The notes: generated by a model not told the origin, from the letters alone. Shown: positions 4,809 to 50,151, counted from the first letter of the stretch. The stretch: DNA of 64,000 nt from an uncultured bacterium (GCA_963749445.1 CAVVMJ010000003.1:715-64714); one strand, 5' to 3'. Made by a program: numbers and translations.

Positions 4809-5759
4809 TTGTTCAATCATTTTATGATACTTGAAACTTTTAAAACTTTTGGCTATTTTGAACTGCTGGACACCGGCAGAGGTTTTCGTCTGGAACGGTG
4901 GGGCGAGGCGGTGTTGGCACGGCCGGATCCGCAAATCATTTGGCCAAAATCGTTAGCCGATTCAGAATGGGATAAGGCTTGGGCGATTTTTAAATCAGGC
5001 AGCGGCGATGGAAAAGGGAAATGGGATATCAAAAAAAATCTTCCCGTTCCTTGGACCGTTAAGTTCCAAAACATCCGATTCTTGCTCAAGCTCTTCCCTT
5101 TCAAACATACCGGGCTGTTTCCCGAACAGGCGGCGAATTGGGAGTTTATGATTCAAAGATTAAAAGATTCAACCCATTCGACAAGCTCAGGGCAGGCGAT
5201 TGAAAGATCAAAAATTCTGAATCTTTTTGCTTATACGGGAGGCGCTACGATAGTACTGGCCAAGGCCGGATGCTTTGTCACCCACGTGGACGCTTCCAAA
5301 CCGGCCATAACTTGGGCCAAGGAAAATTATAAGTTAAATTTCGAAAATAATGCGCCCTTCGACCACGCTCAGGGCGAACATTCCCAACATATTGGGAATG
5401 TCCGCTGGATTTTGGATGACGCGGTAAAATTCGTCAAACGCGAACTTAAGCGCGACGCCAAATACGACGGCATAATTATGGATCCGCCGGCCTTTGGCCA
5501 TAGCCCTTCCGGCAAGACCTGGAAATTTAACGACGACCTACCTGGGCTGTTAGCCGATTGTGTTCAGCTGCTTTCGACCAACGCCAAATTCCTCATCATC
5601 AACGGCTACGCCACGAATTCTTCCGCTTTGGCGCTCAATAATTTACTGGAAGACGCCATAAGAAATCGCGGCGGACAAATAGAGTTTGGCGAACTGTGCT
5701 TAAAACAAAAAAATGAACGCTTGATATCTACCGGCATCTTCGCCCGTTGGTCATCTTAA
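4809..5759 (+). CDS. class I SAM-dependent (r)RNA methyltransferase, RlmI/RlmK-like
   Basis: LNLFAYTGGATIV (motif I) and DGIIMDPPAFGHS (motif IV), as in 23S rRNA m5C/m2G methyltransferases. Confidence 0.65.
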   Translation: MFNHFMILETFKTFGYFELLDTGRGFRLERWGEAVLARPDPQIIWPKSLADSEWDKAWAIFKSGSGDGKGKWDIKKNLPVPWTVKFQNIRFLLKLFPFKHTGLFPEQAANWEFMIQRLKDSTHSTSSGQAIERSKILNLFAYTGGATIVLAKAGCFVTHVDASKPAITWAKENYKLNFENNAPFDHAQGEHSQHIGNVRWILDDAVKFVKRELKRDAKYDGIIMDPPAFGHSPSGKTWKFNDDLPGLLADCVQLLSTNAKFLIINGYATNSSALALNNLLEDAIRNRGGQIEFGELCLKQKNERLISTGIFARWSS

Positions 5760-11188: not shown

Positions 11189-11302
11189 GTCATTCCCGCG
11201 AAGGCGAGAATCATTTAATTTGTCATTGCGAGTGCAGCCGAAGCAATCTTTTTATAGATTGCCGCGTCGGCCAGATAAAGCCCTGGCCTCCTCGCAATGA
11301 CA
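11189..11302. repeat. palindromic MITE-like repeat, family A (1.5 copies)
   Basis: gtcattcccgcgaaggcgagaatca followed by gtcattgcgagtgcagccgaagcaatc...gattgccgcgtcggcc...ggcctcctcgcaatgac. Near-identical copies at 11667-11753 and inverted at 55877-55963, with a partial copy at 24715-24770. Confidence 0.8.
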
Positions 11303-38731: not shown

Positions 38732-40727
38732 GCACCGCGACTTTCTTTTTCCCGCTTAACTTATAAATATTTTCGGCTTCCGTGCTCACCACTTTTGTCT
38801 TTCTGCCGTTGCCGCGCAGTTCCTGATAAAGAGATTTAAAAGTATGCCCGTCGTAATCCCAATCCACCGCCCAATAGTCTATAAGCACAGCAAAATTATT
38901 TTTTATCAACAACATAAGTTCAGTGCGCGACTCGTCCGCCTTTTTACCGCTGCCCAAAGGAAAATCTTCTACAATATAATTTTCTATTTTAATTTTCAGT
39001 TTTAACCCTTCAATTTCCGGTTTGGCAATTTTTAAATATGGCTTATTGAAAAACACCACTTTACCAACAAGCGGCTCCAAGTCGTCCTCGGTTTTTGCCT
39101 GTTTTAGATACTCGTAAATATCCGGCGGAATTTGTTTTGGGATAATTTCCAATTTAGTTTTTGCCGCTTTTTTTCTTTCGTTCAACAGTTCATCAAAATT
39201 GTATTCGTAATCCCAGCCCAAAAGAGTCAAATTCGCGAAACCTCCGCCCTGTAAATTTTCCGCTTCCTTGGCCAATTCTTCCGCCTTATGCGCCGCAATC
39301 GGCCTGTCCGGATAGCCGCAATACACCAATTCCATTTTGCCGTCCTCGGATTTTTTTACGCCCAAATCCTTGCGGTTTTCCATAATTTCCGCGCCGTAAA
39401 GCTTTAACACGATTTTTTGCATCTCATAAATCCGCCCTCCTCCCAAATAAATCATCTCCCTCTGATAATTCCCAATATTCTCCACCAAAAACGGTTTTGA
39501 TTTTTGTTCCACCAGTCTGCCACGCGCGACTTGAATACCAACTTTCCCTAGCTCACATCCAATCCATCGACGGTTTAAATTTTCAGCTACTGATATCGTT
39601 GTTCCTGAACCCAAGAAAAAATCTGCAACGATTCCATTTTCAGGGCACGACGCTTCAATTATTCTTTGCAAAAGTTTTTTTGGTTTCTGAGTTTGATATT
39701 CTATATATTCGGGCATTGCTGGATAAACTTGCGTAATCCTTGCCTCATCACTATCTATCCACGACCATACATCATCCATCTTTCTTCCTTCGTCAGCATA
39801 ATAACGATTTGCGTTATTGTTGCCGCTCATTCGATATTTCCTACCCTCTTCATCTGTAAACGGATAAATGGATAAGTCCTTAACCGGAACACGCACAGGG
39901 TTAAAATATCTGTTATCTCCTTTTGAATAACGAAAAATCATGTTGTGTTTTCGAGCAAAGTCTTTTTCAGGAGCGGTCCCAGCTTGAAAATGCCAAATTA
40001 TCTGATTCCTAAAATTTTCCTCTCCAAAAACCTCATCCATCATCACTTTTACATAATGCCCAACGTGCCAGTCCAAATGCGCGTAAATACTGCCATCTTC
40101 GGCCAAAAGGCGTTTCATTAGTTGCAAACGCGGGTAAAGCATATCCAAATAGCTGTCTGTGCCGCCAGCCCAGGTGTCTTTGTAGGCCAAGCGTTCTATT
40201 ACGCTCGGCTCTTTTACCAATTCCAAATCCGCCGATGTTTCAGAAACATCAGCCAGTTTGATTTTGTGCGAATAGTCCGCCTTGCTGTCAAACGGCGGAT
40301 CAATGTAAATTAAATTTATTTTGCCTTCGTACCCCTGGTTTAACAGTGCCTGCATTGCCAATAAATTGTCGCCCCAAATTAGGCGGTTCATTTTTTGCTT
40401 GTCCAATTCTTCTTCCCCGATTTTGCCGTCTGTAAAAGACAAAGGCAACTGGCCTCTGTGCTCGGGATTTGGCACCACCACTTCCGCGGTCTGGAATTCA
40501 ATATCCTTGGGGTTAGGCGCGCGCTTGGGTTTGGTATCCCAAACCAGCCGGGCCGAATCCCTTTTCCTGTTAGTATTCATTTGTTGTAGCTGAGGATTTA
40601 GTGCAGCTGGAAAACAAAAAGGGCCTCCCAACCGCGAGCAACACCTTTCGATGTTACTGCGTGCTTGCGCACGCACCTCAGCTACGAGTGCGGTTAAGAG
40701 ACCGTCCTTATGTAGCTGAGGTTTCAA
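38676..40727 (-). CDS. mod: type III R-M Mod subunit (adenine-specific DNA methyltransferase)
   Basis: INLIYIDPPFDSKADY (motif IV) and C-terminal FFLGSGTTISVAENLNRRWIGCEL (motif I). Overlaps res by 56 nt. Confidence 0.85.
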   Translation of the reverse strand: MKPQLHKDGLLTALVAEVRAQARSNIERCCSRLGGPFCFPAALNPQLQQMNTNRKRDSARLVWDTKPKRAPNPKDIEFQTAEVVVPNPEHRGQLPLSFTDGKIGEEELDKQKMNRLIWGDNLLAMQALLNQGYEGKINLIYIDPPFDSKADYSHKIKLADVSETSADLELVKEPSVIERLAYKDTWAGGTDSYLDMLYPRLQLMKRLLAEDGSIYAHLDWHVGHYVKVMMDEVFGEENFRNQIIWHFQAGTAPEKDFARKHNMIFRYSKGDNRYFNPVRVPVKDLSIYPFTDEEGRKYRMSGNNNANRYYADEGRKMDDVWSWIDSDEARITQVYPAMPEYIEYQTQKPKKLLQRIIEASCPENGIVADFFLGSGTTISVAENLNRRWIGCELGKVGIQVARGRLVEQKSKPFLVENIGNYQREMIYLGGGRIYEMQKIVLKLYGAEIMENRKDLGVKKSEDGKMELVYCGYPDRPIAAHKAEELAKEAENLQGGGFANLTLLGWDYEYNFDELLNERKKAAKTKLEIIPKQIPPDIYEYLKQAKTEDDLEPLVGKVVFFNKPYLKIAKPEIEGLKLKIKIENYIVEDFPLGSGKKADESRTELMLLIKNNFAVLIDYWAVDWDYDGHTFKSLYQELRGNGRKTKVVSTEAENIYKLSGKKKVAVRVVDIFGNDATKILEVEI

Positions 40728-40894
40728 CCATGTCCCGCCGAAGGCGGGGTTTAGGCTTTACCCGGGGTTTTACGCCCGGGGCAATATTCTCCGCCGGAGG
40801 CGGATCCGCCTTTGGTGGAAATTGTATTTTAATTATACTACAATTAAGCCAAAAATAAAACCGCCGGTTTTAAGCAAATTTTTTGCTTGCGCAG

Positions 40895-45177: not shown

Positions 45178-45889
45178 AATTATATTTTAGCACAAACAAA
45201 AAAAAGAAGCAGGCGTCCCGGTACACTCACAGGACGCCCGCGATAGGCAACTCCCACCAAAGGATGCCTTAGTTGGTAACTTCCGCCGCTCGAGCCTGCA
45301 AGGCCCGGGGATTGCGTTCGCCGCTCGACGCAACGAGCGGCAGAATAGCCGGTGCCCTGTTGGGCTTGCCATCAAGGGCACGGCGGGCGACTTCCAGGGG
45401 TGCTTGACCCCTGGCTCCTCCTTCTTGAATGAAAGCCCCTCTCTGGGCGGCGACGAACCTGCCAGACCTGCCGTAGTTCTTCATCAGTTTCTCCATGTTG
45501 TAAGAAAACAACGCTACCGATATGGCAATCGGAGGCACCGCTTCCTTACAAAAATAATACTCTTATATATGCCATAAGTCAAACTAATCTGTTATAATAA
45601 ACATGAACAGGAGGCCCTATGAGTATCCTGAAAACACCTCCTTTCCTGCAGTAGCGTTTCCACGACACGATTTAGCCTCCGCAGAGAGGCCGCTGTTTAA
45701 TCCGCTACTTGCGGGAAAGGAGAGTGATCCAGCGCAGATATACCTTTTGCCGATATTTTTTCCGGCGAGGCGCCATTGTTTTTCTTTTGGCGCCCTTTTC
45801 TTTTGCTCTTGGCTAAACCGGCTATCTGATTTATACTACCCACGATGACTTTTCCTATTCTCTTGTCTCTAATCTCTTTTCACTAACAT

Positions 45890-47052
45890 ATGTCTTTTCA
45901 AATCGGAATCGTCGGGCTGCCAAATGTAGGAAAATCAACTCTTTTTAACGCCATTACCAAAAGCAAGGTGGAGGCGGCGAATTACCCGTTTGCCACCATT
46001 AACCCCAATGTGGGCGTAGTGGCTGTGCCGGACGAACGCTTGGCCAAACTGGCCGCGCAGGAAAAAGCGAAAAAATTGTGCCCACGGCTATTGAGTTTGT
46101 AGATATTGCCGGATTGGTCAAAGGCGCCAGCAAAGGCGAAGGCTTGGGCAACCAATTTTTAAGCCATATCCGCTCCGTTGACGCGATTTTGGAAGTGGTG
46201 AGATTTTTTGAAAATAAGGACATTATCCATGTGCAGGGCAACGTTGACCCCAAGCGCGATATGGAAACCGTTGCCATAGAACTGCAATTGGCGGATTTGC
46301 AAAACGTGGAAAATAGATTATCATCCGTCGCCCGCCAGGCCAAAAGCGGCGAACGCGACGCGATAATCAAAAAAACTGTGCTTGATAAATATCGGATGGC
46401 GCTTGAGGCCGGAGCTATGGCCAACACCGTGCATTTGACCGATGAAGAAAAAGAGCACAGTAAGGATATTGAGCTTTTGACCAACAAACCGATTATGTTT
46501 GTGGCAAATGATAAATTTGATTTGGATAAAAAATCTTTTTCATCTGCCATTCCGAGCCCTGGGATATCGGGCGAGGAATCTGTTAAAACATCTGCTAGTG
46601 ATAACAGATCCCTCCACTCGCCCTCGGATGCACTCGGGCTCGGTCGGGATGGCAAATTTATTACCATCGATGCACAACTAGAAAGCGAACTCGCGGAGCT
46701 TTCCGATGACGAACGCGCGCAGTACCTTAAAGAACTCGGCCTGCCGGAATCGGGTTTGGATAAAATCATCAAAGCCGCGTATAAAACTTTAGGGCTGATT
46801 ACCTTTATTACGGCCGGGCCAAAAGAAAGTAAGGCCTGGACCTGCCCCGCCGGTACCAAAGCTCCGCAGGCCGCGGGAATAATCCATACCGATTTTGAAA
46901 AAGGCTTTATCCGCGCCGAAGTCATCCAATGGAATAAATTATTGGAAGCCGGCGGCTACGGCCCGGCGCGGGATAAGGGTTGGCTAAGGGTTGAGGGAAA
47001 AGAATATGTGATTGCGGATGGGGATGTTGTGCACTTTAGATTTAATGTATAA
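45890..47052 (+). CDS. ychF: ribosome-binding ATPase YchF (Obg family), with an apparent frameshift at ~46085 and an in-frame repeat insertion
   Basis: [16 protein letters not shown] and FATINPNVG in the first ORF; [24 protein letters not shown] through the C-terminal TGS domain in the second. The frameshift falls in an A6 run. Insertion at ~46523-46660. Confidence 0.9.
46523..46660. repeat. composite palindromic repeat (family B) inserted in frame in ychF
   Basis: cattccgagcc...ggcgaggaatc and cagatccctccactcgccctcggatgcactcgggctcggtcgggatgg. Family B copies also at 50051-50092 and fused with family A at 24715-24770. Confidence 0.7.
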
Positions 47053-47327
47053 TTTGATATAATTCAAACAATCCTGCTCATGCAGTTTGGGCTACAGTTC
47101 AAACTCGCGGGGTTTCCAATCTTTGGAGCGCCAGAGTATTGCATCTTACGGGGTGTAATAGCGTGCGAATATTGATTGCGGTGATACTTCTTGTCTGTTT
47201 CCAGCGGAAATGCCCCGGCGTTAGGTTGGGACTACTCCCAAGTTAAATACAGGAAAGAAAAGGGTATAGGCCTCTAAAAGGCAGTAAGCCTTACATTTTC
47301 CAGTGATCACGGACGGAAATAGGCAAT

Positions 47328-47448
47328 TTCTCGACTCCAACGGGTATCGCGTCTGCGTCAAGCTCAACTCGGATGGGCTCAACGTCAACAACGATCATCC
47401 GTCCTACGGCGACAACGACAACTTGTACGTCTGCGTTGCCCGGAAGTC
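47328..47448 (+). repeat. DGR template repeat (TR)
   Basis: 121 bp matching VR at 48950-49070 (minus strand). All 16 mismatches are A in the TR. Confidence 0.85.
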
Positions 47449-47461
47449 TCATCGTTTTTTA

Positions 47462-47495
47462 AATCAGACCTACCTTTTAAAAGGTAGGTCTGATT
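47462..47495. terminator. perfect 13-bp-stem hairpin (aatcagacctacc-ttttaaaa-ggtaggtctgatt)
   Basis: Lies between the TR and the 3' end of avd. Could be a bidirectional terminator or a DGR RNA structural element. Confidence 0.5.
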
Positions 47496-47847
47496 GTTGC
47501 AGCACCTGAACTGATTTTTTCCAGCCGCCTAACATCCGGCCTATTTCATCCACCGAATCCTGAAAGAAAATATACTTTTTATTATCCATGGCCTTAATGT
47601 CTTTAGCCAGACGCATATAAATCCGCAAAATATTAAGTTTGCCGCTGGCTTTGTCCAAATATGGTAGCTTTTCCGCCTTGGGTAAGCCGGTTGCGGTAAG
47701 CAGATACTCCAAAATTTCCGTTAAAACTGTTTCGCTTTTTTGGCCTAAAGAATATCTGTCCTGCTTTGGGAAAGTTTTTAAACAAATATAAAACTCCTTG
47801 TATAAATCATACGACTTTTTAAAAATTGGAACATCAAATTCATTCAT
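47470..47847 (-). CDS. avd: DGR accessory variability determinant (Avd, four-helix-bundle/IVS-like)
   Basis: FPKQDRYSLGQKSE and DEIGRMLGGWKKS parallel bAvd PRKHGVAREMF and EVGRILGSWIARV. 125 aa, strongly basic C-terminal half. Confidence 0.75.
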   Translation of the reverse strand: MNEFDVPIFKKSYDLYKEFYICLKTFPKQDRYSLGQKSETVLTEILEYLLTATGLPKAEKLPYLDKASGKLNILRIYMRLAKDIKAMDNKKYIFFQDSVDEIGRMLGGWKKSVQVLQQSDLPFKR

Positions 47848-48843
47848 ATGAAAATCTATAAAGATGTTTTTAGCAAAATAGCTAGTGCGGAAAACCTGTT
47901 TGACTCATGGCAGGCATTCCGCAAGGGAAAGACTAAGCGCAGCGACGTAATGGCTTTTGAATTTTCATTGGAGCAAAATATTTTTGATTTGCGCGATGAA
48001 TTAAAATCAAAAAGATACAAACATGCGCCCTATTCTTCCTTTTTTATTCAAGATCCCAAACAAAGGAACATTCATAAAGCCAGTGTCCGCGACCGGCTTA
48101 TCCACCATGCCATTTTCGCCGTTCTGAACCCCATTTTTGAAGCGGCCTTTATTCCCAATTCCTTTTCCTGTCAAAAGGGCAAAGGCACGCATAAGGGAGT
48201 GGAGGCGCTTAAAAATATATTGCGCGAAGCCAGCAAAAATAACACCAAACCATGCTTTGTGCTTAAATGTGATATTAGACAGTTTTTTCATTCGGTTGAC
48301 CATGATATTTTGATTTCAATTATTGGGCAAAAGATCAAAGACCTTGATGCCATGCGGCTAATCCGAGAGATTGTGGAGAGCTTCCCTAATGGCGTGCCGA
48401 TAGGCAATTTGACCAGCCAACTGTTTGCCAATCTTTATTTAAATGAGCTCGACAGGTTTGTTAAGCACAAACTGAAAGTTCCTTTTTATGTTCGCTATAC
48501 CGATGATTTTGTTCTGGTTTCAGATTCGCCTGAAAAACTTCTATCCTTGCTGGAATGGATAAAGCTGTTTTTGCGGGAGCGGCTCAAGCTTGAGATCCAC
48601 CCGCACAAACTAACTTTACGAAAATACCATCAGGGGATTGATTTTCTTGGTTATATTCAGTTTCCCAAATTTAGGATTTTGAGGAACAAAACTAAGCAAA
48701 GAATTTTAAGGAAATCGGCCAAGGGCTTAAACGAGCAGTCCTTGCAATCGTATTTAGGGGTTCTGTCTCATTGTAATGCCTACAAGCTTGGCGAGAGTTT
48801 AAAGAACGAGTTTTGGCTGCAAAGTGAGGAGGGGAAAAAGTAA
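47848..48843 (+). CDS. DGR reverse transcriptase
   Basis: RT motifs 1-7 with YTDDFVLV (motif 5) and the DGR-diagnostic IGNLTSQLFANLYL (motif 4). 331 aa, RT domain only. Confidence 0.9.
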   Translation: MKIYKDVFSKIASAENLFDSWQAFRKGKTKRSDVMAFEFSLEQNIFDLRDELKSKRYKHAPYSSFFIQDPKQRNIHKASVRDRLIHHAIFAVLNPIFEAAFIPNSFSCQKGKGTHKGVEALKNILREASKNNTKPCFVLKCDIRQFFHSVDHDILISIIGQKIKDLDAMRLIREIVESFPNGVPIGNLTSQLFANLYLNELDRFVKHKLKVPFYVRYTDDFVLVSDSPEKLLSLLEWIKLFLRERLKLEIHPHKLTLRKYHQGIDFLGYIQFPKFRILRNKTKQRILRKSAKGLNEQSLQSYLGVLSHCNAYKLGESLKNEFWLQSEEGKK

Positions 48844-48924
48844 AAAAAATTTCGGGAAGGCTTCGCCAGAGGCGAAGCCTTGCTTTCAAGGCCTCAAAGC
48901 CTAAAGCTTCAGAGTTCCGAAGCT

Positions 48925-49779
48925 TCAAGCGATCAAAGCACGATGGGCGGACTTCCGGGCAACGCAGACGAACAAGTTGCCGCTGCCGCCGTAGGACGGA
49001 TGAGCGCCGTAGACGAAGAGCCCAGCCGAGTCGAGCCAGACGCAGACGCGATACCCGTGGGAGTCGAGAATGCGGCCCCAGTGATAGACGTTGTCGAACA
49101 GCCGCTGACCGGTGGCCTTCTGGTGAGCGAGCACCGCCTGGGAGAACACGCGCTCGTCGGCGCGTTCGTAGTCTTCGCCCAATGCCACGATGTTGTCTTC
49201 CTGCTGTTGCCAGTTGGTGCGATTCCACCGCGGGGTCATGTCGAGCAGGTAGTAGCCGGCCTCCGGCTTGCTGTCGCCGACTTCCTTGTACTGCGGCTTC
49301 AGGAACCAGTCGACGCCCGGGTAATAGTTGGGCGGGTGGCTCTTGTCGGTACCGAGCGTGGAGTGCTGGCTGCGGAACGACGCTGTCGAAGCATAAGCCA
49401 GCATCCATTTGTGCGTCCCGGCCTTGTTCTGGTAGGCACACTCCTGAATCTGGGCCATGTTCGGGCAAACCACGGTCTGTCCCTTGGGGGACGGTTGGGC
49501 GAAGGTGGTCGAGTTCTGCTCGTGCGTCACCAGACTGGTCTGGCCGAGCAGGGTGAGCGCACCAGCGAGGTCGAATGCCGGAGTCGTCAGCCGGATTGCG
49601 AGCCGGTGAACGAATTGCTGATACTCTTCCGGATAGACTCCGCTGCTATGGATTGCCAAAAGTTCGGCGTGAAGGAAACTTCCCTTCTCCAGTGCGGCTT
49701 CGGTTGCGTTGCGCATGTCTCGGATTTGACCCGGGGTTGCCGGATCGTTGCTCTTAGACGTGAGTAATGGGGTTCCCAT
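48925..49779 (-). CDS. DGR target protein (FGE-sulfatase/C-type-lectin-like fold) with C-terminal variable repeat
   Basis: C-terminus ...LDSHGYRVCVWLDSAGLFVYGAHPSYGGSGNLFVCVARKS corresponds to TR-encoded ...LDSNGYRVCVKLNSDGLNVNNDHPSYGDNDNLYVCVARKS, with TR AAC/AAT codons diversified. GC-rich relative to its neighbours. Confidence 0.85.
   Translation of the reverse strand: MGTPLLTSKSNDPATPGQIRDMRNATEAALEKGSFLHAELLAIHSSGVYPEEYQQFVHRLAIRLTTPAFDLAGALTLLGQTSLVTHEQNSTTFAQPSPKGQTVVCPNMAQIQECAYQNKAGTHKWMLAYASTASFRSQHSTLGTDKSHPPNYYPGVDWFLKPQYKEVGDSKPEAGYYLLDMTPRWNRTNWQQQEDNIVALGEDYERADERVFSQAVLAHQKATGQRLFDNVYHWGRILDSHGYRVCVWLDSAGLFVYGAHPSYGGSGNLFVCVARKSAHRALIA
48950..49070 (-). repeat. DGR variable repeat (VR)
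   Basis: See TR. The shared ggaagtc at the 3' end is the candidate IMH boundary. Confidence 0.85.
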
Positions 49780-50151
49780 TGTCAGTATCCTCTTATTCAG
49801 TTGTCAAAGCTTCCTTGGGCCGCAAGGACACGGTCTCATCTTTTTCAAAACAAGACAAGCACTTTATTATCCTTCGATTAGTGAAGGATTGTAAAGCGCA
49901 AGTCTCGTTATTTTTGAGACCTTACATTATGGCACTTTTTTTATCTCCTGTCAATATCGACAAAAAAACCATCAAATGCTATAATTTCAACACTTATCCA
50001 TTTCGAGCGAGTCAGACGAGCCGAGAAATCTGTTTAATTAAAATCAAAAACAGATCCCTCCACTCCTCGGATGCACTCGTCGGTCGGGATGGAATCTAAT
50101 TTAATACACTAATCATATTCCCCCTATGGGGGATAGAAAGGATTCCTTTCT

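Follow-up and report, generated by a model that had tools for sequence, protein, structure and literature searches.

A conserved leader RNA upstream of the template repeat of a diversity-generating retroelement in a Doudnabacteria-like genome

To our knowledge, reverse transcription by diversity-generating retroelements (DGRs) is understood mechanistically only in a Bordetella phage element. There, the RNA flanking the template repeat (TR) on both sides primes, guides and stops the synthesis of complementary DNA (cDNA). Here we describe a DGR in a 64,000-nucleotide stretch of DNA from an uncultured bacterium (GCA_963749445.1, CAVVMJ010000003.1:715-64714; hereafter the window, from whose first letter all positions are counted), and a conserved structured RNA, the leader, that lies directly upstream of its TR. 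The prototype is the DGR of Bordetella phage BPP-1, which has the order mtd-avd-TR-brt. Directly after its TR, Sp3-33 forms an 11-bp stem-loop that binds the accessory variability determinant, Avd; Sp47-56 pairs with TR117-129 and ends at the priming adenine, A56; and two nucleotides further on, Sp59-70 pairs with avd369-379 just upstream of the TR, where the cDNA stops (Handa et al., bioRxiv 10.1101/2023.10.23.563531). The same authors reported Avd-binding stem-loops just downstream of the TR in 207 of 278 Avd-type DGRs, including those of the Candidate Phyla Radiation (CPR).

For CPR bacteria, the layout “TR-(avd)-RT” (RT, reverse transcriptase), named Architecture B3, made up 90% of the set of Wu et al. 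2018 (Nucleic Acids Res 46:11, PMC5758913), in which DGR components on different strands were already known. CPR-restricted DGRs form clade 2 of Roux et al. 2021 (PMC8144416), and their targets typically have no recognisable domain or membrane anchor. Structured RNAs have also been described beside bacterial RT genes, namely the motifs RT-1 to RT-19, among which RT-10, assigned to a DGR, is the counterpart of the spacer between TR and brt in BPP-1 (Weinberg et al. 2017, PMC5737381). The window’s leader resembles these motifs in being a structured RNA next to an RT gene, but unlike RT-10 it lies 5' of the TR, not between TR and RT. As a DGR, the window’s element adds another example to a CPR clade that has been surveyed well; its main interest is the conserved leader that brackets the TR.

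We consider it very likely that the window, part of a Doudnabacteria-like genome, carries between ychF and rpsF a functional DGR of the CPR clade that has Architecture B3, and that this DGR works by the mechanism proposed below. Comparisons drew on a scan of one genome per species, in which 199 loci encoded relatives of the window RT; the best 80 of the 199 were surveyed. By title, all 80 are uncultured metagenome-assembled genomes, mostly Patescibacteria/CPR (L-numbers denote loci of this set and additions to it). The nearest relatives among them had RTs 86–92% identical to the window’s, and two were titled Candidatus Doudnabacteria. Adenine-biased mismatches served to locate pairs of TR and variable repeat (VR), an iterated profile to find Avd, and tblastn to find the RT; 59 surveyed loci had a TR/VR pair.

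The first-pass annotation of the window had called a complete DGR, and each of its parts was recovered (Table 1). The RT matched RVT_1 at 4e-24. Its best solved relative was 8ub7_A (2e-52, residues 4–306), followed by group II intron RTs (2e-23). We take 8ub7_A to be the Bordetella phage RT (bRT), because its aligned sequence has the residues described for that enzyme; R74 and I181 of bRT align with R73 and I185 of the window RT. Both residues promote adenine mutagenesis in bRT, and the signature motif of DGR RTs is [I/V/L]GxxxSQ (PMC7826257). The window RT does carry the annotated IGNLTSQ form of this motif, and a check for YxDD found it in place. The gene annotated as bAvd-like scored above the cut-offs of both NF033474 DivGenRetAVD (88.7 bits, cut-off 80) and PF22296 bAvd (69.5 bits, cut-off 40), and no solved Avd chain in the PDB gave a significant sequence match to it.

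An ungapped alignment of the TR with the reverse complement of the VR showed 106 of 121 positions to be identical. All 15 mismatches fell at TR adenines and none at any other base; the annotated adenine-only pattern was therefore upheld, with a count of 15 in place of 16. The chance probability of this outcome is ~1.7e-10 (27 adenines in 121 nt, 22% A). In the frame of the target gene, the TR adenines occupy codon positions 1 and 2 (9 + 18) and never position 3. The VR ends 25 nt before the target stop codon, and no further TR-like copies were found in the 64-kb window. We looked for an end resembling an initiation of mutagenic homing (IMH) site: the final 21 nt, CGTCTGCGTTGCCCGGAAGTC, are the same in TR and VR, including two unmutated adenines. 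These adenines (47444–47445, in GGAAGT) are also unmutated in the VRs of the close relatives L001, L002 and L003. In a search for an IMH inverted repeat, the sole conserved hairpin downstream of the VR started ~68 nt away and was terminator-like; Wu et al. 2018 found inverted repeats downstream of the VR in only 34% of DGRs (PMC5758913). We also considered that the region upstream of the TR might be the remnant of a duplicated target gene, and rejected this because the similarity stops at the 121 nt.

Relatives of the window showed lineage-specific changes in the VR. Between the window and L001, whose RTs are 92% identical, the TRs differ at one site and the VRs at 17, all of them at TR adenines. 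Moreover, an alignment of target homologues was hypervariable exactly in the VR segment. The element is complete and, as judged from these patterns, probably active.

That the ~250 bp upstream of the TR are highly structured had been a side remark of the first-pass annotation, and it led to the leader result. Folding of 47053–47520 gave z = −4.5 against dinucleotide shuffles, and the structure is conserved across related loci. The sequence between the −10 box of a promoter-like site and the TR is non-coding and adopts a two-domain fold. When the 330 nt preceding the TR were aligned for 58 loci, 50 of them had a −10-like TAnnnT box at the same column (background 2.3% per position), and it is kept irrespective of which gene lies upstream.

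We aligned leaders by subfamily with G-INS-i (MAFFT) and built covariance models from seeds that had been aligned without structural information. For the 5' domain, the seed (RNAalifold, 14 sequences) contained 30 pairs, 22 of them compensatory; for the 3' domain, the 13-sequence seed contained 34 pairs, 26 of them compensatory. Each model matched the window once, R2 (the 5' domain) at 112 bits (E 6e-25) and R1 (the 3' domain) at 122.7 bits (E 2e-30). In the 5' domain 93.0% of cells were paired (60.8% shuffled) and the covariation was 0.811 (0.230 shuffled; slid controls 0.11–0.13). The 3' domain had 95.1% of cells paired (63.4% shuffled), a covariation of 0.600 (0.177 shuffled; slid controls 0.08–0.14), and changes on both sides in 33 of its 34 pairs. 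None of 500 shuffles reached the observed pairing or covariation values for either domain; together the two domains comprise 64 pairs, 93–95% paired.

The position of the leader was as constant as its structure. R1 matched 46 related loci, and R2 gave 40 matches at E ≤ 1 over 38 loci; the ones that were checked sit immediately 5' of the 3' domain. Wherever a TR had been located, the matches to both models lay upstream of it and on its strand. In 32 of 39 loci, TR/VR homology began no more than 3 nt from the 3' end of R1. Matches included a locus with TR and RT on different strands (L080) and three in which avd is not between TR and RT (L035, L039, L044). They also included seven loci where the mismatch-based search had given no TR/VR pair; R1 and R2 thus offer a practical marker for the TR in such cases. 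We regard it as strongly supported that the upstream structured region belongs to the DGR RNA, and that this holds across the family.

The leader matched no described RNA family that we examined. A search of 47030–47860 against Rfam 15 (4227 families, in which we assume RT-1 to RT-19 to be included) at E ≤ 1 and at E ≤ 10 gave nothing above chance, the chance-level matches over the element being small nucleolar RNA and small RNA models on the other strand. A scan of the whole window at Rfam gathering scores gave no match to leader, TR or post-TR hairpin. Nor did we find the leader described in the DGR literature searched, a set that stops short of Paul et al. 2017 and the supplementary tables of Wu et al. 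Seven loci (L018, L021, L029, L030, L037, L048, L059) have shorter leaders of 210–240 nt beginning GGCTAATACAA. These match the 3'-domain model and not the 5'-domain model; therefore, the 5' domain is replaceable.

In addition to its internal helices, the leader pairs with the far end of the TR. The single-sequence minimum-free-energy fold of the window predicts this long-range duplex unaided. We tested it by energy, comparing each locus’s own partners with partners taken from other loci; column-wise covariation was not used because ungapped concatenated alignments leave the TR ends out of register and bulges differ between subfamilies. Results over 39 loci showed −12.1 kcal/mol for own partners versus −8.4 between loci, and none of 10000 permutations was as low. 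With the conserved ACUNC core removed, 34 de-replicated loci still gave −7.97 versus −6.02 kcal/mol (0 of 20000 permutations). Compensatory pairs within the duplex included ACTTC/GAAGT in the window, ACTAC/GTAGT in L016 and ACTCC/GGAGT in L020, and further ones were GAGGAG/CTCCTC in L007 and CATTACC/GGTAATG in L026.

The comparison with Bordetella gives these helices a possible meaning. The window’s DGR shares with that of BPP-1 an RT that aligns to solved bRT and has the [I/V/L]GxxxSQ motif and the equivalents of R74 and I181, an Avd, adenine-only TR/VR differences, and a target of predicted C-type lectin (CLec) fold; it differs in having an antisense avd placed between TR and RT and a target encoded on the opposite strand. 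At the RNA level, both systems have a stem-loop after the TR, a duplex abutting the TR 5' end, and another involving the TR 3' end. The order on one strand is also the same: first comes the pairing partner of the TR 3' end, and at once after it the strand whose pairing abuts the TR 5' end. In Bordetella, however, this stretch is in the spacer downstream of the TR, whereas in the window it is at 47178–47202, ~140 nt upstream of the TR and inside the leader. By analogy, priming and stopping, which in the Bordetella phage are functions of RNA downstream of the TR, may here belong to the leader.

We extend this analogy, with rather less than an even chance of its being correct, to the tentative proposal that the CPR DGR RNA is a circular permutation of the Bordetella DGR RNA, with the strands of the primer duplex and of the stop duplex both in the upstream leader. 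The unmutated adenines in GGAAGT fit a primer duplex that stays uncopied. If true, the permutation would explain how the spacer between TR and RT can hold an antisense avd; it would also establish a large family of RNAs, one with 64 covarying pairs and no entry in Rfam 15. Handa et al. searched CPR DGRs with only 40 nt upstream of the TR (bioRxiv 10.1101/2023.10.23.563531); therefore, a partner ~140 nt upstream would have been missed. A conserved leader that brackets the TR differently in the bacterial lineages richest in DGRs provides a testable model of how far the Bordetella mechanism generalises.

The mechanism that we propose for the window would run as follows. A sigma-70-like promoter (47035–47063) would drive a non-coding DGR RNA, starting near 47070 as judged from the promoter-like sequence, that consists of the ~260-nt leader, the 121-nt TR and a 15-bp stem-loop. 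The leader segment 5' of helix H5 would pair with the TR 3' end and its flank, holding the TR as a closed loop. A complex of RT and Avd would bind the leader-TR RNA, and cDNA synthesis would begin near the TR 3' end. The TR would be copied with random nucleotides opposite its adenines, and the cDNA would presumably stop at H5. This cDNA would replace the VR in the C-terminal, putatively lectin-fold domain of the target, which would be transcribed from its own opposite-strand promoter. The RT would probably be translated from plus-strand read-through across the antisense avd.

Several points weigh against this account. The DGR RNA and its ends are predictions from sequence. A metagenome scan for the VR 3' flank gave 0 matches; a second scan, which used a 20-mer from the leader, yielded L081 and L082, two short contigs without the VR. 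Pair counts for the leader were made on model-fitted alignments, which favour the modelled structure, the MAFFT seeds themselves being structure-free. In the long-range duplex, the register differs between subfamilies, the core has a G-A mismatch in 12 loci (ACTGC opposite GAAGT), and the energy advantage of own partners is only moderate after removal of the conserved core. Lastly, a simple consensus scan for promoters came up empty both from the leader promoter to the start of the RT and in the region just before avd, which leaves the account without an explanation for how either gene is expressed.

The stem-loop after the TR bears on the last of these points. It had been annotated as a perfect 13-bp hairpin between TR and avd; the hairpin is indeed perfect, but its arms are 17 nt long and it overlaps the stop and last codons of avd. 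The window’s hairpin starts 14 nt after the TR, and its stem is maintained by compensatory T-A to C-G changes in L001 and L002. Comparable hairpins were present in 58 loci (mean −16.8 kcal/mol versus −6.5 shuffled), starting a median of 10 nt after the TR and having a median of 13 bp. This stem-loop is a candidate Avd-binding stem-loop and/or transcript end. One alternative is that it is only a terminator, for the TR RNA and/or avd, and that the RT has a promoter inside avd with no long antisense transcript. In agreement with that idea, the hairpin reaches into the 3' end of avd, and in half of the relatives (29 of 58 loci) a U-rich, terminator-like tail comes after it on the TR strand. In the window and L001–L003, however, the tail is GUUGCAGCA or similar, with 2–4 U of 9 and hence no U-tract, and the minus-strand side is A-rich. 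Also, the promoter scan revealed no site for the RT, and the stem-loops that Handa et al. found after the TR in most Avd-type DGRs could serve for both termination and Avd binding. We therefore judge the terminator-only explanation unlikely, though it is the strongest of the alternatives. A transcript antisense through the whole of avd, as the first-pass annotation had suggested, is plausible, because the sole promoter-like site on the plus strand upstream of the RT precedes the leader and because the window hairpin has no U-tract. With no consensus promoter before the RT, the simplest arrangement would be for transcription from the leader promoter to continue into the RT, antisense to avd. 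By the same reasoning from promoter-like sites, the promoter of avd itself would have to lie within the RT coding sequence.

Another possibility is that the leader acts in cis as a regulator, for instance a riboswitch or attenuator, that controls transcription of the TR, the avd antisense and the RT, and that it stands outside the ribonucleoprotein that makes cDNA. Its 5' position behind a conserved promoter would suit such a role, as would its conserved single-stranded stretches, for example TAAAATACAG, and the terminator-like hairpins in half of the loci, through which read-through into the RT could be regulated. Against this, the leader’s 3' helix sits at the 5' limit of TR/VR homology, and the leader’s pairing with the TR 3' end is locus-specific; no riboswitch in Rfam matched it. 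The leader also accompanies the TR in L035, L039 and L044, whose avd lies elsewhere than between TR and RT, and in L080, whose TR is on the strand opposite to the RT. We consider a purely regulatory leader improbable, and favor its inclusion in the RNA that is bound and copied by RT and Avd.

It is likewise improbable that the DGR is decayed or silent, its TR/VR differences being old and its target no longer diversified. In favour of decay, the neighbouring ychF has a −1 frameshift in an A-run, which could reflect either sequencing error or gene decay in this genome. Against it, all three genes are intact over their full length, the RT retains its catalytic and DGR-signature residues, Avd is 97–98% identical to its relatives, the VR is in frame without stops, and the VRs of close relatives differ only at TR-adenine sites while their TRs are nearly identical.

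Table 1. Positions of the DGR components, RNA structures and promoter-like sites in the window.
Feature	Position	Strand	Details
DGR RNA promoter-like site	47035–47063	+	TTTAGA, 17-nt spacer, (TG)TATAAT; 10/12 matches
Leader 5' domain	47066–47183	+	covariance model R2
5' domain helix	47072–47077 with 47107–47112	+	
5' domain hairpin	47084–47092 with 47097–47105	+	
5' domain hairpin	47115–47119 with 47123–47127	+	by eye, outside model
5' domain helix	47129–47131 with 47165–47167	+	encloses 47137–47146 with 47151–47160, UACG loop
Long-range duplex, 5' strand	47178–47191	+	GCGGTGA-T-ACTTCT; includes part of family-wide motif ACTNCTTG
Leader 3' domain	47184–47329	+	covariance model R1
Helix H5, 12 bp	47191–47202 (TTGTCTGTTTCC) with 47315–47326 (GGAAATAGGCAA)	+	closes 3' domain, ends 1 nt before TR
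3' domain helix inside H5	47206–47209 with 47235–47238	+	around variable hairpin 47212–47216 with 47228–47232
Conserved single-stranded stretch GTTAAATACAGG	47242–47253	+	3' domain
3' domain helix inside H5	47252–47256 (GGAAA) with 47297–47301 (TTTCC)	+	
Within 47252–47301 helix	47260–47263 with 47289–47292; hairpin 47270–47273 with 47279–47282	+	
Template repeat (TR)	47328–47448	+	121 nt, 27 adenines
Long-range duplex, 3' strand	47442–47455	+	GGAAGT-C-TCATCGT; last 7 nt of TR + 7 nt beyond
Post-TR palindrome	47462–47478 + 47479–47495	+	perfect, 17-nt arms; ~15-bp stem, UUAA loop, −23.6 kcal/mol
avd, accessory variability determinant, 125 aa	47470–47847	−	NF033474, PF22296
DGR reverse transcriptase, 331 aa	47848–48843	+	R73, D142, I185-GNLTS-Q191, Y217-TDD220
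RT/target intergenic hairpin	48857–48881	.	AAGGCTTCGCC-AGA-GGCGAAGCCTT; target strand: 8-nt spacer then T8
Target, 284 aa	48925–49779	−	AGAGGA ribosome-binding site; C-terminal VR
Variable repeat (VR)	48950–49070	−	encodes target residues ~237–276
Target promoter-like site	49926–49954	−	TTGACA, 17-nt spacer, CATAAT, with TG; 11/12 matches

The strand-interleaved layout, which the first-pass annotation had called non-canonical, is already known and is the standard one for the CPR DGR clade. In the window, the plus-strand TR is followed by a reverse-strand avd and then a plus-strand RT with no other accessory gene, which is the definition of Architecture B3, and the same TR(+)-avd(−)-RT(+) order was seen in nearly every surveyed locus with all three located. 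The avd ATG (CAT, 47845–47847) adjoins the RT ATG (47848–47850) back-to-back, as annotated; in nearer relatives the two start codons are 0–12 nt apart. Abutting starts of this kind, a post-TR hairpin, and a GC-rich target beside an AT-rich RT were common in related loci. We assume that the window’s DGR belongs to clade 2 of Roux et al. 2021.

The window shares its core order, strands and host group with the CPR DGRs of Architecture B3, but differs in that its target lies downstream of the RT and on the other strand. In the 59 surveyed loci that have a TR/VR pair, a VR opposite to the TR strand occurred only in the window, L001–L003, L005 (its second VR), L007 and L010; the remaining loci had the VR on the TR strand, usually ending 280–400 nt upstream of the TR. 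Two further loci with the window’s target family, L083 and L084, likewise had the VR on the strand opposite to the TR. The window, L001–L003, L083 and L084 thus have one shared target family and a target downstream of the RT on the opposite strand. Locus L005 has two VRs, the first upstream on the same strand and the second downstream on the other; of the 17 mismatches that each shows to the TR, 15 are at adenines of the TR. Because this single locus holds both orientations, retrohoming in the CPR clade is independent of VR orientation.

The target protein had 23 homologues, all unnamed. Its residues ~70–284 are predicted to adopt a fold like that of C-type lectins and FGE, and a fold comparison matched many C-type lectins with moderate scores; for the N-terminal ~65 residues, helices were predicted with low confidence. 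These models indicate a divergent C-type-lectin/FGE-like fold with the VR at its C-terminal end, an assignment at the level of fold only. By sequence, the target matched nothing in Pfam/NCBIfam at E ≤ 0.01, including PF03781 (FGE-sulfatase) and DUF1566, and nothing in the PDB below E 0.07; inspection by eye revealed no signal peptide or membrane segment. In having no recognisable Pfam domain or membrane anchor, it is like the targets of CPR clade 2 DGRs (Roux et al.). It differs from FGE-type CLec variable proteins in that it has no PF03781 match, lipoprotein or signal sequence, and it is only 8–15% identical to Treponema denticola TvpA (2y3c), Thermus TaqVP (5vf4) and Mtd (1yu0). The hairpin between the convergent RT and target genes, whose stem is kept by compensatory changes in L001–L003, probably ends the target transcript, given its sequence. 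Separately, a distant target homologue, P0022 (41% identity), is at 5001–5819 of L085, where neither an RT nor an avd was seen up to 5 kb away; it could be either a remote target or a paralogue that is not diversified.

As the first-pass annotation had stated, the target and TR are much richer in GC (0.611 and 0.562) than the RT and avd (0.407 and 0.373; whole window 0.472). Of 59 related loci, 47 had a target whose GC content was over 10 points higher than that of the RT, when the last 150 nt of the target, which contain the VR, were excluded. Mean GC values in related loci were 0.517 for the target, 0.357 for the RT and 0.415 for the whole locus, and the target sense strand was not specifically A-poor. 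We considered that the GC-rich target might be a local foreign insertion or an assembly chimera. This was rejected because the GC-rich TR beside the AT-rich avd matches the target and because the same contrast recurs in the 47 loci. The family-wide GC excess of the target over the RT is a pattern worth attention.

With regard to genomic context, the gene order ychF-DGR-rpsF-ssb-rpsR-efp was common to the window and L002, and the shorter L003 contig has ychF immediately before the DGR. In L001, L083 (next to uvrC/uvrA) and L084, the TR-(avd)-RT-(target) cassette, again with the window’s target family, was found in other, unrelated contexts. Third-position identity between the window and L002/L003 was 0.74 for avd, 0.69 for RT and 0.60 for the target, compared with 0.46–0.62 for flanking genes. 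This lower divergence of the cassette suggests exchange of cassettes between lineages or extra constraint. In the window, ychF (45890–47052) is split over two frames near 46066–46078, where the run GCGAAAAAATTGTG has one A fewer than in L002. This −1 homopolymer frameshift could be a sequencing or assembly error, or could mark a true pseudogene.

The stretch between a phosphomannomutase-like gene and ychF (45178–45889, ~700 nt) held only short open reading frames. It includes a GC-rich segment (0.62–0.63, ~45200–45500) with an 89-aa minus-strand frame at 45269–45538 and no Rfam match. We also noted a dispersed palindromic repeat with the core CTCGGATGCACTCG, present in six copies (0.14 expected): at 46603–46652 and 50049–50095, and more weakly near 11229, 11674, 24733 and 55943. 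The two most similar copies flank the DGR in direct orientation and share identical blocks of 17 nt and 15 nt. One of them is in frame within ychF, where the window protein is ~30 aa longer than that of L002, and the other is upstream of rpsF. Lastly, a LOOT RNA (Rfam RF03000, a motif whose function is unknown) was detected on the minus strand at 40640–40757, with 57.1 bits against a gathering score of 46.4.

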